64,000 nucleotides of DNA. It comes from an uncultured Chloroflexia bacterium (lineage in GTDB: Bacteria; Chloroflexota; Limnocylindria; QHBO01). Within the stretch, counting starts at the first letter, position 1. Each line of letters begins with the position of its first letter. Below the pieces are notes generated by a model. That model did no database searches. It saw only the letters and a program-made list of their open reading frames with translations, and was not told the origin of the DNA. Shown here piece by piece: positions 30,123 to 34,817 of this stretch. The DNA is taken from the NCBI GenBank assembly GCA_963814375.1, contig CAWFCQ010000004.1, positions 64,001 through 128,000 of the forward strand, read 5' to 3'. The position numbers and the translations under genes were made by a program.

Positions 30123-30574
30123 TCAGGCGCAGTCCACGCAGCGGCCGACGAGGGTCGTGTGCGACAGGTCGACGCTGAACCCGCTCTGTGCCCTCGATCT
30201 GCTCCACCAGCGGCCGCAGCTCGGCATCGGCGACTTCCCACTGGCGGCCGCAGCCGGCGCAATGGAGGTGACCGTGATCGTCCGCCGGCCGGATGTGATA
30301 TTCCTCGCGACCGTCGGCGCCATGCCCGTGGCGGACGAGCCCGAGCTCCTCGAGGACGTCGAGGGTGCGGTAGACGGTGGACGGCACGGTCGCCGGATCG
30401 AGCTCGCGGCAGCGCCGCACGATCTCGGCGCCGGTGACGTGACCGGAGCTGTCCGCCAGCACGTTGATGACCTGGCGGCGCTGTGGCGTCCAGCGCAGTC
30501 CGCGCTGTTGGAGGTAGCCCCGCAGCCGACGCCCACGGCTCCGGCAGGACCTGCTCCACGGGCGTCGCGCTCAT
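30123..30574 (-). CDS. Fur family metalloregulator (Nur/Zur-like), with frameshifts
   Basis: GHVTG, STVYRTLDVLEELGLV, HGHLHCAGCG, GRCVDCA* in different frames; ATGA coupling to the permease. Confidence 0.85.
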
Positions 30575-31554
30575 CCGCCGATGAACCTGAACATCTCGTC
30601 GAGGTTCGGCAGCGACCCCTCGGCCTGGAACAGCATCAGGGTGCCGATCCAGATGCTGAAGATTCCCGCCAGCACGCCGATGCCCACGTAGAGGCGGGTC
30701 CGAACCTGGCTCGCGATGAAGCCGGTGGCGGTCATCACCACGATCACGGTGTTCGAGAACACCAGGCCGATGATGAAGGCGAACAGCATCGGCACGCCGA
30801 GACCCTGGCTCGAGGCTCCACCCACCGCGGCGATGAGCAATGCCTGCGAGGCGGTCTCGGCGCCGATGCCATGGATCATCCCGACGCCAAAGGCGGTGCG
30901 CGGCCCATACGAGCTGGCCTCGATGGGATCGACGTGATGGTGGCCGTGGATCCTGGCCTGGAGCCGGCGCCATGCATGCCGGACTCCGTCGAAGACGAGC
31001 ATCCAGCGGCTCCTCAGCCGGAACTCCCCGCCGTGGCGCACGTACTGGTAGAGGGAGACGAACACGTAGACACCCAGGAACACGAGCGTTGCTCCGACCA
31101 CGCGACCCATGATCGGGTCGATCCAGGCCGGCAGCGCGGCTCCGAGCAGGAGCGCGGCGAGCCCAAGGATCGCGACCACCAGGGCGTGCCCGAGCGCATA
31201 CAGCGTTCCGAGGAAGATCGGCTGGCGCTCGACGCTCAACGTCTCGAGCAGCCCGCGGCCCTGAGGCTTCTCGGTTGCGAGCATCGCTCCGGGACCTTCG
31301 CCCGCGCGCCTGACGTGCGCCGCGGCCTCCGTGCTGCCGCCATGGTCGTGGGCGTGGCCACCGAGCGCCTCGTGGTCACGGCGGTGAGCGGCCTCGGCCG
31401 CGGAGGTGGCGGCGGTGGTGCTGGTGATGTCGGTGATCGCCGCGATGTGATCCCAGTCGATGCCGTGCCGGATCCCGAGCAGGAGGCCGGTAACGAGGAC
31501 TCCCACACCCGCTGGGCTGGAGACTGCGGCGGCGAGATTCGAGAATGCGTCCAC
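30571..31554 (-). CDS. NiCoT/HoxN/UreH-like nickel/cobalt permease
   Basis: GIRHGIDWDHIAAI, His-rich loops, LGHA, GMIHGIGAET, multiple TM. Confidence 0.88.
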   Translation of the reverse strand: MDAFSNLAAAVSSPAGVGVLVTGLLLGIRHGIDWDHIAAITDITSTTAATSAAEAAHRRDHEALGGHAHDHGGSTEAAAHVRRAGEGPGAMLATEKPQGRGLLETLSVERQPIFLGTLYALGHALVVAILGLAALLLGAALPAWIDPIMGRVVGATLVFLGVYVFVSLYQYVRHGGEFRLRSRWMLVFDGVRHAWRRLQARIHGHHHVDPIEASSYGPRTAFGVGMIHGIGAETASQALLIAAVGGASSQGLGVPMLFAFIIGLVFSNTVIVVMTATGFIASQVRTRLYVGIGVLAGIFSIWIGTLMLFQAEGSLPNLDEMFRFIGG

Positions 31555-31563
31555 GGCGGGACG

Positions 31564-31603
31564 ATGGTAAACGCCTCGCGTCGCATATGCAACAGATTGC
31601 AAT
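31564..31603 (-). promoter_or_regulatory. Promoter (TTGCAT-17 bp-TACCAT) overlapped by a TGCAA-N4-TTGCA inverted repeat, candidate Fur-family operator
   Basis: -10 at 31569-31564; -35 at 31592-31587; TGCAACAGATTGCA at 31588-31601. Confidence 0.65.
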
Positions 31604-31669
31604 AACGCGGAGCCGCGCGAGCTACCCATGTGGAGCGACGCCGATGCGCGCGCTAGAATCGACGGCCGT

Positions 31670-31744
31670 GGCGGAGTAGCTCAGTGGTAGAGCAGGGGAC
31701 TCATAAGCCCTTGGCCGGTGGTTCGAATCCGCCCTCCGCTACCA
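31670..31744 (+). tRNA. tRNA with CAT anticodon (elongator Met more likely than Ile2)
   Basis: Cloverleaf: GGCGGAG/CTCCGCT acceptor stem, GCTC/GAGC D stem, CTCATAA loop, GGTTCGAATCC T arm, encoded ACCA; TAGAAT -10 at 31654. Confidence 0.97.
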
Positions 31745-32694
31745 GCCCACCACTCGACGCGTTGGCGGCCGCCGTCGACCGCGGCGCCCGCACCCTCCGC
31801 ATTCCGGACGACGCCAAGATGCTCCTGGCCGTCTCCGGCGGTTGCGACTCGATGGCCCTGCTGCGCGGGGCCGCCCGCCTGGTCGAGACCGATGCGCGCC
31901 AGTGGCGCCTGACCGTCGGCCACCTCGATCATGGCCTTCGTCCGGAGAGCCGGGACGACGCGACCTTCGTCGCCGATGCAGCTGCCTCGCTCGGCCTGAC
32001 CGTCGAGTTGCGTCAGACCGATGTCCACGCGCTCGCGGGTGCCGAGGGCCGGTCGATCGAGGACGCCGGTCGGGAGGCACGTTATCGGTTCCTGGAAGAG
32101 GTCGCGCCGCCCGGGACGCTGATCGCCACCGCCCACACCGCCGACGACGCTGCCGAGACCGTGCTCCTCAATCTCCTGCGTGGCAGCGGGCTGGCGGGCG
32201 TTCGCGGCATCCCGGCGCGGCGCGGCCGGATCGTGCGACCGCTGCTCGGCGAGCGACGAGCGACGCTGCGCGGTCTGCTCGACGCGGCCGGCATCGGCTA
32301 CCGGGATGACCCGTCCAACGAGGATCCGACATTCCTTCGCAACCGCGTGCGAGCCGAGCTCCTTCCACTGCTCGAGGAGCTGCGACCGGGAGCGGTTGAT
32401 CGCATCGGCAGCTTCGCGCGCCTGGCGGCCGATGACGACGCGCTGCTCGACGAGATAGCGGCGGCCGAGCTGGCACGACGGCGAACCGAGGCCGGCGAGA
32501 TCGATTGGCACGACCCGCCCGCCGATGCGCTGGCGCGGCGAGTGGTGCGCCTTGCGATCGGCGAGCCGGCGCCGAGCGCCGAGCGCGTCGAGGCCCTGCT
32601 CGAGGCCGCGGCCGGCGATCGCGGTGGAGTGACAGTCGAGCTGGGCGGCGGCAGGGTCGCATCGGTGCGGGAGAGGCGAATCCGGATCGGTTGA
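31684..32694 (+). CDS. tilS: tRNA(Ile)-lysidine synthase, short form; start uncertain (31684 inside the tRNA, 31762 or 31819)
   Basis: AVSGGCDS, HLDHGLR, EDAGREARY, AHTADDAAETVLLNLLRG, RPLL, DPSN, RNRVR; upstream of ftsH. Confidence 0.93.
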   Translation: MVEQGTHKPLAGGSNPPSATSPPLDALAAAVDRGARTLRIPDDAKMLLAVSGGCDSMALLRGAARLVETDARQWRLTVGHLDHGLRPESRDDATFVADAAASLGLTVELRQTDVHALAGAEGRSIEDAGREARYRFLEEVAPPGTLIATAHTADDAAETVLLNLLRGSGLAGVRGIPARRGRIVRPLLGERRATLRGLLDAAGIGYRDDPSNEDPTFLRNRVRAELLPLLEELRPGAVDRIGSFARLAADDDALLDEIAAAELARRRTEAGEIDWHDPPADALARRVVRLAIGEPAPSAERVEALLEAAAGDRGGVTVELGGGRVASVRERRIRIG

Positions 32695-32861
32695 GCCAAA
32701 CCGGCAACCCAGTACGTATAGAAGGTACCGGTGACCCCTGATCGGCCGTTTGTTCGGGTCTCAGGGCGCACCTATACTGGCGCGGCTCGAGGGGTCATCC
32801 TCTGGAGCCGGTGACGGCCGCGGGCCGGCGCCGAACGCACGGAGGCGAAAGCAGACCCACA

Positions 32862-34817
32862 TTGACCAGTCGCATCGTTCGCAACAGCGTCGTGCTCGTC
32901 GTCCTGGCCGTCTTTGGATTGGCCGTCCTGTGGACGTTCATGAGCGGCGGCGAGACGGGCGAGACCTACACCTACAGCCAGCTCCTCGATGACGTGGCCG
33001 CCGGGCGGATCGAGTCGATCACCCAGGAGGGCACGACCCTCACCGTCCTCACGCGCGACGGCGAGGAGCTCACCACGACCGTCGCCTCCTCCGACATCAA
33101 TTACCGCGAAGAGGTGTTCGCCGCGTGCGGCGAGAGCTGCGGCGACCTGAGCTTCGACTACGTGCAGCCCAGCGCGGCCGGCGGGATCCTGACGCTCCTG
33201 ATCAGTGCGCTGCTGCCGGTCCTGCTCATCGGCGGCTTCATCTTCTTCATGATGCGGCAGGCGCAGGGCACCAATAACCAGGCCATGAGCTTCGGCAAGA
33301 GCCGGGCTCGCATGTTCCTCGGCAACAAGACCGTCGTCACCTTCAACGACGTCGCCGGCGTTGACGAGGCGAAGCAGGAGCTGACCGAGGTGGTCGAGTT
33401 CCTCAAGTACCCCGAGAAGTTCAACAGCCTCGGCGCCCGCATCCCGCGCGGCGTCCTGCTGGTGGGGCCGCCCGGCACCGGCAAGACCCTCCTCGCACGC
33501 GCGGTCGCCGGCGAGGCGGGGGTGCCGTTCTTCAGCATCTCCGGCTCCGAGTTCGTCGAGATGTTCGTGGGTGTCGGCGCGAGCCGCGTGCGCGACCTCT
33601 TCGAGCAGGCCAAGCGCAACTCCCCGTGCATCGTCTTCGTCGACGAGATCGATGCCGTCGGGCGCCAGCGCGGCGCCGGCCTCGGTGGCTCGCACGACGA
33701 GCGGGAGCAGACCCTCAACCAGATCCTGGTCGAGATGGACGGCTTCGACACGAACACCAACGTGATCGTGGTGGCCGCCACCAACCGTCCCGACGTCCTC
33801 GACCCGGCGCTCCTCCGTCCGGGCCGGTTCGACCGACAGGTCGTCCTCGACCGCCCCGACATCAAGGGTCGCAAGGAGATCCTCTCGGTCCACATCAAGG
33901 GCAAGCCGCTCGACAAGACCGTCGACATCGAGGCCCTCGGTCGGCGCTCGCCGGGCTTCTCCGGTGCGGACCTCGCCAACCTCGTCAACGAGGCGGCCAT
34001 CCTGGCCGCGCGCCGCAACAAGAAGAGCATCGGCGCCGACGAGTTCAACGAGGCGATCGACCGGGTCATCGCCGGACCCGAGCGACGCAGCCGGATCATC
34101 ACCGAGGAGGAGAAGGAGATCATCGCCTACCACGAGGGCGGTCACGCCGTCGTGCAGCGCGTGCTTCCCAAGTGCGACCCGGTCACCAAGGTGACGATCG
34201 TGTCGCGCGGCATGGCCCTCGGCTACACGATGAGCCTGCCGCAGGAAGACCGATACCTCCACTCGAAGACCGAGTTCGAGGACAAGATCGCCGGCATGCT
34301 GGGCGGGAACGTGTCCGAAACGCTCGTGTTCGGTGACACGACCACGGGCTCCTCGAACGACATCGAGAAGGCCACGAACCTGGCCCGCGCGATGGTCACG
34401 CAGTACGGCATGAGCGAGAAGCTCGGCCCGCTGGCCTTCGGCAAGAAGGAGGAGATGGTCTTCCTGGGCCGCGAGATCAGCGAGCAGCGCAACTACTCGG
34501 ACGAGGTTGCCGCCAAGATCGACTCCGAGGTGCGCGAGATCATCGACCGCGCCTTTGAGCGGGCGCGAGAGGCGCTGACGACCCACCGCGACGTGCTCGA
34601 CCGGCTCGCGGTCCTGCTCGTCGAGAAGGAGACGATCGAGTCCGAGGAGTTCGAGGCGCTCTTCGACGGCGTGCTGCCGCCGCGCAGCGGTGGCCCGACG
34701 CCGAAGAGGATCGGCGCGGCCGCCGAGACCGATGGCGTCGAGCCCGATCTCGAGCCCGAGACCGAGGAAGAGGGCGGCAAGCGCCGCCGGCCCGGCCCGG
34801 CACCGCAGCCGGCCTAG
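32862..34817 (+). CDS. ftsH: ATP-dependent zinc metalloprotease FtsH
   Basis: Two TM; [41 protein letters not shown]; probable TTG start. Confidence 0.98.

Follow-up and report, generated by a model that had tools for sequence, protein, structure and literature searches.

The 64,000-nucleotide (nt) stretch analyzed here (hereafter the window) is C4:64001-128000 of the source genome G000, an assembly of 2.5 Mb with 70% G+C that is 89% complete at a contamination of 4.5%, and whose close relatives are metagenome-assembled genomes (MAGs) named Candidatus Limnocylindria or Chloroflexota. We were concerned with the junction between the sole transfer RNA (tRNA) gene that ARAGORN finds in this window, a 75-nt gene with anticodon CAT, and tilS, which follows directly behind it on the same strand in an open reading frame (ORF) of 310 to 336 codons, depending on the start (Table 1). 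The tilS frame is uninterrupted from TAG 31654-31656, upstream of the tRNA, to TGA 32692-32694, and takes in the tRNA gene on its way: read as codons, the tRNA portion would amount to about 20 of them (VEQGTHKPLAGGSNPPSAT), and a peptide predicted from this segment is GTHKPLAGGSNPPSAT, which the linker behind the tRNA follows. An earlier note on this DNA had pointed to a tilS frame open through the tRNA from GTG 31684, with GGAG 7 nt upstream of it, and had quoted a peptide; all of its coordinates are right, and the peptide is the translation of the tilS ORF. Among relatives, which form a family of uncultured Chloroflexota from soil, the frame relation between the tRNA and tilS goes far beyond chance. 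On the strength of these sequence comparisons we favor, with reasonable though by no means strong confidence, a start of TilS within the tRNA sequence, used while the tRNA is still part of the longer transcript.

The gene behind the tRNA is, judged by its product, that of TilS, the tRNA(Ile)-lysidine synthetase. The product scores 157.4 bits against TIGR02432 (cut-off 93.6) and matches PF01171 with an E-value of 2.4e-44; the PF01171 domain begins at residue 45 of the long ORF, and the PP-loop motif SGGCDS is present. Alignments to the TilS structures 3a2k, 1wy5 and 1ni5 start at ORF residues 40 to 44, which correspond to chain residues 14 to 24. Across the genera of the source family (f1), the sequences indicate that TilS is under purifying selection. 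Its substrate, tRNA-Ile2(CAU), is encoded in G000 as well, and G000 makes very sparing use of AUA (349 of 626,361 codons, about 0.06%), so that little TilS should be needed.

The tRNA itself scores 65.6 bits against Rfam RF00005, for which the gathering score is 29, and is one of three tRNAs with anticodon CAT in G000. Initiator tRNAs are marked by a mismatch at 1-72 and by three G-C pairs adjoining the anticodon loop. The initiator gene lies at C7:308184-308258 (acceptor CGCGGGG, GGG/CCC beside the anticodon loop), and the window tRNA, with acceptor GGCGGAG, G1-U72 and A31.G39, has no initiator marks. The third gene, at C8:332839-332914, has the acceptor GGGCCCG with the pairs C4-G69 and C5-G68, which we take to be TilS determinants in E. 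coli. The best E. coli match of this GGGCCCG type is an annotated tRNA-Ile with CAT, at 79–80% identity over the full length, and the two pairs are common to both. In the families that have TilS (f1, f2 and f5), 29 genomes out of 33 carry this type; it occurs in none of the seven examined genomes of f3, a family lacking TilS, all of which have only the initiator and a window-type tRNA (acceptor GGCGGAG or GGCTGGG). Because of this family distribution, the E. coli similarity of the GGGCCCG type and the 31-39 mismatch, we identify the window tRNA, by these sequence characters, as tRNA-Met and not tRNA-Ile2; it is an elongator tRNA-Met, the only gene for one found in G000, and the GGGCCCG gene is tRNA-Ile2. 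An elongator tRNA-Met is what TilS must reject, and the substrate is encoded by the gene on C8. Nothing was found in support of TilS binding to the tRNA-tilS RNA, or of the feedback switch that the earlier note had held possible. A 4-base-pair anticodon stem, as in the window tRNA, is given in a passage of PMC13092985 as a feature of 27.3% of bacterial elongator tRNA-Met genes, the top share of all tRNA types. An E. coli match was also tried for the identity of the window tRNA, and was uninformative (the best match was tRNA-Phe).

Table 1. Features of the tRNA-Met/tilS locus and its surroundings (window coordinates)
Feature	Position	Strand	Remarks
TAGAAT, -10-like hexamer	31654..31659	+	10 nt 5' of tRNA; TAG is the in-frame stop bounding the ORF upstream
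Elongator tRNA-Met(CAU) gene	31670..31744	+	ARAGORN; Rfam RF00005; CCA encoded; A31.G39 mismatch, 4-base-pair anticodon stem
GGAG, candidate Shine-Dalgarno sequence	31673..31676	+	5' strand of acceptor stem, tRNA positions 4-7; 7 nt before GTG 31684
GTG, proposed tilS start	31684..31686	+	D-loop, tRNA positions 15-17; start use inferred
tilS open frame	31684..32694	+	336 codons plus stop; TilS fold from about 31754; SGGCDS at 31834-31851
TTG, alternative in-frame start within the tRNA	31711..31713	+	tRNA positions 42-44
Short linker of Pro/Ser/Thr type	31745..31753	+	between tRNA 3' end and first conserved TilS residues (PLDxLA)
TTG	31762..31764	+	18 nt past tRNA end; only plausible canonical post-tRNA start in this genome
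ATG	31819	+	in-frame, 5 codons before SGGCDS
Terminator-like hairpin, weak, with T-rich tail	32728..32755	+	after tilS, before the ftsH promoter region; 1 found, 0.3 expected
ftsH	32811-34817	+	ftsH domains; downstream of tilS

Frame, linker and start codons in the source family

For comparing junctions between genomes, we defined d as the number of bases from the last A of the tRNA to the Ser codon of SGGxDS, and grouped the junctions by spacer length alone. Genomes flagged as unpublished are included in the protein-query set of relatives' tilS genes, in the scan of 401 genomes described below, in the family counts with TIGR02432 and, through L004 (G006), in the 14 long-spacer junctions. The tight junctions of f1, 71 unique ones with d from 77 to 149, take 12 values of d (77, 80, 86, 89, 92, 95, 98, 101, 104, 125, 146 and 149), and in 71 of 71 d is congruent to 2 modulo 3, which is the only frame that is open through the tRNA; the other two are shut by the tRNA triplets TAG, TAG and TAA. 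In a single genome, the chance of a frame open through the tRNA is about 1 in 3, and 12 spacer lengths require at least 11 length changes despite the kinship of the genomes. A pattern scan without any constraint on frame returned 68 f1 matches (G000 included), all 68 with lengths congruent to 1 modulo 3, which is equivalent to the same frame. When 176 genomes of the family were scanned for d = 105–135, four junctions were found. Those with d = 119, 125 and 134 are in frame, whereas the one with d = 135 is not, and its tilS gene has an ATG of its own 34 codons before SGG; three of the four add to the 71, two of these three being in frame. For d below 150, 73 of 74 unique junctions are thus in the tRNA-open frame, as against five of 14 for d of at least 170, where the residues modulo 3 are given as 0 six times (d = 135 excluded), 1 four times and 2 five times. 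The long-spacer tilS genes have an ATG or GTG of their own, several of them with TACAAC 7 nt before the ATG, and from its sequence this layout looks like that of genes which have a separate promoter and are transcribed without a leader. In L091-L094 and L098, the TACAAC box is conserved 7 nt before the tilS ATG and lies 50–66 nt past the tRNA.

From the 5' end of the tRNA to the PP-loop, 70 of the 71 tight junctions are free of stops. The frame and its openness in relatives were what the earlier note had staked its reading on, and both hold for short spacers. In one junction outside this pattern of complete tRNAs, L006 (the same as L072), what is left of the tRNA is its final ~20 nt. They are in frame with tilS, an ATG in this frame lies upstream of them and TTGACA is nearby; the contig ends 154 nt away, and the tRNA piece may be a remnant kept as coding sequence or may be an effect of the contig end. 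The flanks upstream of the tRNA in L001-L019 and L065-L100 fall into two conserved types, TAGAATCG...CCGT and TGAGCACGAATCGCGT.

The spacing behind the tRNA changes in units of codons. In 32 loci, the distance from the tRNA end to the Leu of PLDxLA is 2, 3, 4, 5, 6, 15 or 23 codons, always whole codons, and from this variation in linker length it follows that insertions and deletions have occurred immediately past the tRNA, before conservation of the TilS sequence sets in. In many relatives, a mere 2–4 codons separate the tRNA end from these first conserved residues, which agrees with the earlier note in leaving no space for a promoter or terminator between the two genes. For the coding signal, we used three ungapped sets, one each for d = 92 (24 sequences), d = 86 (15) and d = 89 (10). 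From the Leu of PLD onward, third codon positions are the most variable in these sets. Where d = 92, linker codon 2 has an invariant C as its second base, and codon 4 nearly so (Pro, Ser, Thr or Ala). This pattern of codon positions means that reading in codons reaches back to a point no more than one or two codons past the tRNA, with the coding signature extending up to the second codon past it.

Canonical start codons behind the tRNA are few. In 38 of the 71 tight junctions, the sequence past the tRNA lacks any ATG, GTG or TTG at least 7 codons before SGG, and just nine have one at least 22 codons before it. Among 32 loci, no near-cognate codon is conserved at any position. The TTG 31762 of the window falls on a conserved Leu; half of the 32 loci (16) encode this residue by CTG or TTG, the other half by CTC or CTT, and the Ile of IPDD is ATC or ATT in 26 of 32, a start at which would drop the conserved N-terminal helix. 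The view of the earlier note that TTG 31762 is a poor alternative therefore stands, in that this codon is not a conserved start and is CTG, CTC or CTT in most relatives. Inside the tRNA, the GTG at positions 15-17 is present in 70 of 71 tight junctions and the TTG at 42-44 in all 71, and it is only here that canonical in-frame starts are common to the tight junctions; computation cannot separate GTG 31684 and TTG 31711 as the start. The lone tight junction without the D-loop GTG, L078, has GAG instead, and a TTG 21 nt past the tRNA. In the other GAG variant, L004 (the same as L066; G006, flagged as unpublished), tilS is 841 nt away and has its own ATG. In L004, the ~840 nt that part the tRNA from the PP-loop of tilS hold a small ORF that, by eye, looks to be of ribbon-helix-helix antitoxin type.

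Sister families and the loss of TilS

A same-strand CAT tRNA directly upstream of tilS is found in the genus and also in f2 and f5, whose TilS proteins are 40–45% identical. We scanned 401 genomes across the class for a CAU tRNA followed by a PP-loop at 75–105 nt, and found the pairing in 67 of 153 genomes of f1 (plus G000), 70 of 92 of f2 and both genomes of f5; it was absent from all 137 genomes of f3 and all 16 of f4 in the same scan. In 44 tilS loci from other phyla, which came up in the search that gave the relatives, no CAT tRNA lies within 1200 nt upstream of tilS. By this distribution of the sequences, the linkage of the tRNA to tilS is old and specific.

The junctions of f2 and f5 are built differently. 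An in-frame GTG, TTG or ATG lies 2–6 nt past the discriminator base in 26 of 27 of them (L020-L027, L186-L205), and in most of them the tRNA itself contains a stop in this frame. CCA is frequently missing from the gene, or, in many junctions, ACCA is followed by GTG at once, and the C-rich 3' strand of the tRNA offers no Shine-Dalgarno sequence. It is a reasonable idea, given these sequences, that 3' processing of the tRNA leaves a leaderless or nearly leaderless tilS message in these families. The initiator tRNA lies ~600 nt further upstream in both.

In f3 and f4, TilS is largely gone. A protein query found TilS in none of seven f3 genomes, and none of five had a TilS over the Pfam cut-off; among genomes that are at least 90% complete, TilS exceeds the TIGR02432 cut-off in one of 169 in f3 and in none of nine in f4. 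At the locus in f3, a terminator-like hairpin comes next after the same tRNA, and ftsH after the hairpin, with tilS missing in between. No tRNA-Ile2 occurs in the seven f3 genomes examined, and a tRNA-Ile(UAU) was not found with two strict patterns in four TilS-less genomes and G000. Examples of loci without TilS in f3 and f4 are L031-L035 and L059 (G026-G040 and others). ATA codons persist in these families, at nine of 7833 codons in what is a small sample. The only elongator CAU tRNA of the examined f3 genomes has a 4-base-pair anticodon stem. A tRNA-Met with a 4-base-pair anticodon stem has been proposed, in a part of a 2026 paper (PMC13092985), to be able to read AUA. The class would in this way present a series of locus states, namely a start inside the tRNA, a start abutting the tRNA and a leaderless promoter of tilS's own, with the loss of TilS and tRNA-Ile2 as a fourth, and such a series is useful for studying the reduction and loss of AUA decoding.

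Initiation signals and readings of the junction

For a start inside the tRNA, the locus offers a plausible ribosome-binding site in GGAG-N7-GUG. The 3' tail of the 16S ribosomal RNA carries the anti-Shine-Dalgarno sequence CCUCCU, and in a test set of 600 ORFs with an unambiguous first start (clean-start ORFs), GGAG, GAGG or AGGA is enriched 9–17 nt before the start and present in 123; the GGAG of the tRNA begins 11 nt before GTG 31684, inside this range. As for transcription, the TAGAAT hexamer lies at the same distance from the tRNA in many relatives of the genus and would function as a promoter element; from its position 10 nt upstream, the 5' end of the primary transcript is probably only a few bases ahead of the tRNA. 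A consensus scan for promoters of sigma-70 type gave no full -35/-10 match near the tRNA. When 31664-31800 is folded, the cloverleaf is obtained at an energy no better than that of shuffled sequences (z = 0.18), and no alternative structure worth following was seen.

The sequences show how the two genes are arranged and what they are, that the frame is locked, that other start codons are lacking and that the coding signature runs up to the tRNA. The transcript, the start codon used and the competition between processing and translation that we infer for f1 would combine as follows. The sole elongator tRNA-Met gene and tilS would form one transcription unit with no intergenic space; its RNA would begin a few bases ahead of the tRNA, and the reading frame of tilS would open within the tRNA gene. 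On the uncut transcript, with the acceptor stem probably still unpaired, a ribosome would bind GGAG at tRNA positions 4-7; the kinetic window for this would exist because the 5' acceptor strand presumably stays single-stranded until its partner is transcribed ~60 nt later. Initiation would take place at GUG 15-17 in the D-loop, or possibly at UUG 42-44, and the ribosome would read the remaining tRNA as codons, cross the linker and enter TilS. Once the 3' end of the tRNA has been processed, the tilS RNA would be without a start codon in most species and would be untranslatable, so that a strong tRNA promoter would give little TilS, as suits the rarity of AUA. In its fullest form, which we put forward only tentatively and hold to be doubtful, the proposal is that of a bifunctional tRNA-Met precursor whose acceptor strand and D-loop serve as ribosome-binding site and start of tilS, in which the amount of TilS is set by a race of ribosome loading against folding and processing, and whose counterpart in the sister families has its 3' cut create a leaderless tilS. 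If this were true, the amount of TilS would be coupled to the flux and the maturation state of tRNA transcription.

Several observations weigh against a start inside the tRNA. The proposed start sits within what is predicted to be a very stable structure, and we know of no tRNA for which translation initiation within such a structure has been demonstrated. The same GGAG and GTG occur, with no extra constraint, in the tRNA of the sister family without tilS; they are therefore pre-existing and not evidently shaped for tilS, and tilS may have come to use what was already there. In f2 and f5, the stops inside the tRNA and the starts adjoining it mean that tilS starts immediately after the tRNA there. 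The compared genomes are related, and the junction counts overstate their independence. The one tight junction with in-frame stops, L018 (G008, 56% complete), has two TGA past the tRNA, and frameshifts in tilS too. Finally, the sequencing runs that match the stretch do so with shares of at most 0.15, two RNA runs being at 0.05. Four RNA runs contain mostly tRNA fragments from other organisms, and a contig from RNA runs, which as such cannot reveal RNA ends, joins 31751 to 31828; one fragment runs 8 nt beyond the tRNA end and then into adapter. All this is too weak to show co-transcription.

The most serious alternative is that TilS starts past the tRNA, at TTG 31762 in the window and at any canonical or near-cognate codon (CTG, ATC, ATT or ACG) in relatives, and that the open frame is an annotation artefact. 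We consider this unlikely, although it has substance. A start at TTG 31762 would give TilS an N-terminus of normal length compared with the solved structures, with 13–17 residues before the structure-aligned region, like the TilS proteins of E. coli and Geobacillus; 26 of the 71 tight junctions have a canonical start at least 18 codons before SGG; the codons at the conserved Leu and at the Ile of IPDD are in many loci of a kind that might serve; and a survey cautions, in its passages on such cases, about over-long start calls beside tRNAs (PMC4131195). What a start past the tRNA leaves unexplained is that short spacers are in frame with the tRNA, with a single exception, while long spacers vary, that the linker changes by whole codons, and that the coding signature is already there at codon 2 past the tRNA. 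It must also contend with the junctions that have no canonical start at all, with the lack of a conserved near-cognate codon, and with a Leu codon that is often CTC or CTT.

A second alternative, which we hold to be improbable, would let the 3' cut of the tRNA set the 5' end of the tilS RNA, which would then be loaded in a leaderless-like manner without a canonical start, the frame being locked to the tRNA end. The starts so close to the discriminator base in f2 and f5, several of them as ACCA-GTG, speak for loading of this kind in the class, as does the leaderless layout with TACAAC in long-spacer relatives, and ~80% of the clean-start ORFs in the genome are without a 4-mer Shine-Dalgarno core. 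As far as is known, leaderless initiation requires a 5'-terminal AUG or GUG. The first codons past the tRNA in f1 are AGC, ACC, AAC, AAT and similar, none of them a known start, and the frame would have to begin 2 nt into the processed RNA. That the tilS genes of tight junctions are start-less, untranslated and decaying toward the loss seen in the sister families is very improbable indeed: the near-absence of TilS in f3 and f4 and the rarity of AUA would fit, but 70 of 71 junctions, from many genera and with 63–80% protein identity, keep an intact ORF, its variation falls on third positions, the PP-loop is invariant and tRNA-Ile2 is retained. We also considered and rejected an uncleaved tRNA that docks in the ribosome in the manner of a transfer-messenger RNA (tmRNA) or an internal ribosome entry site and sets off translation with no start codon, as the 0–3 nt that link the tRNA 3' end to the first codon should be too short for the distance from the peptidyl-transferase center to the decoding center.

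Known nested tRNA genes and other features of the locus

Transcripts that combine a tRNA with a protein gene, and the punctuation of such transcripts by tRNAs, are known from the tufB operon of E. coli and from animal mitochondria. As proposed for tRNA-Met and tilS, the protein gene is there transcribed from a tRNA promoter and parted from the tRNA by tRNA processing; unlike what we propose, the coding region starts past the tRNA. The closest precedent in print is selC, the gene for tRNA-Sec, which is nested in the selB ORF of Alphaproteobacteria and was described as the first whole tRNA inside a bacterial protein ORF (Mukai 2021, PMC8124441, which in the same context cites overlaps of mitochondrial tRNAs). 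In the account given there, the author proposes tRNA maturation and translation of the full protein as alternatives. Both systems have a whole tRNA in the same orientation within a protein ORF, with the frame kept and the overlap lost in some lineages. In selC/selB, as that paper describes it, the tRNA occupies the 3' end of the ORF, lengthens the protein at its C-terminus and is bound by that protein, whereas the tRNA of tRNA-Met/tilS lies at the 5' end, would provide ribosome-binding site and start codon together with ~20 N-terminal codons, and is a near-cognate that TilS must reject, not a substrate. A tRNA-Sec ending 2 nt before the selA start, mentioned in a passage of PMC8124441, resembles the junctions of f2 and f5.

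A survey of overlaps between coding sequences and tRNA or tmRNA genes lists 106 same-orientation cases with the coding sequence downstream, which it held suspicious as probable miscalls of the start (Hudson, Lau and Williams 2014, PMC4131195). Its passages on these cases name neither tilS nor tRNA-Met, and a simple miscall is hard to square with the comparative frame data presented here. No description of tRNA-Met/tilS nesting turned up when full texts were searched for tilS together with tRNA-Met, for tRNAs that are nested or embedded, and for tRNAs of Limnocylindria, the supplementary tables of PMC4131195 and PMC13092985 lying outside the scope of these searches. If TilS does start inside the tRNA, this would be the first case found of a tRNA gene that supplies a protein's ribosome-binding site and start codon, the searches having brought up only the selB/selC case; an essential, highly structured RNA would be readable as the start of a message as well, and the locus would be a natural system in which co-transcriptional folding, processing and translation initiation are set against each other. 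For annotation, gene callers that mask tRNAs will truncate tilS here or call it a pseudogene, and callers that do not mask them give the long form with the tRNA unnoticed.

Upstream of the tRNA, the minus strand of the window carries at 30571-31629 an ORF of 352 residues with several hydrophobic stretches and His-rich segments, which diverges from the promoter region of the tRNA and for which no Pfam family was found at an E-value of 0.001 or better. Elsewhere in G000, clusters of tRNA genes are duplicated in mirrored order, C4:430-438 kb against C8:548-556 kb and C2:225-238 kb against C5:241-253 kb, an arrangement that points to contig ends represented twice or to an assembly in which strains are mixed.

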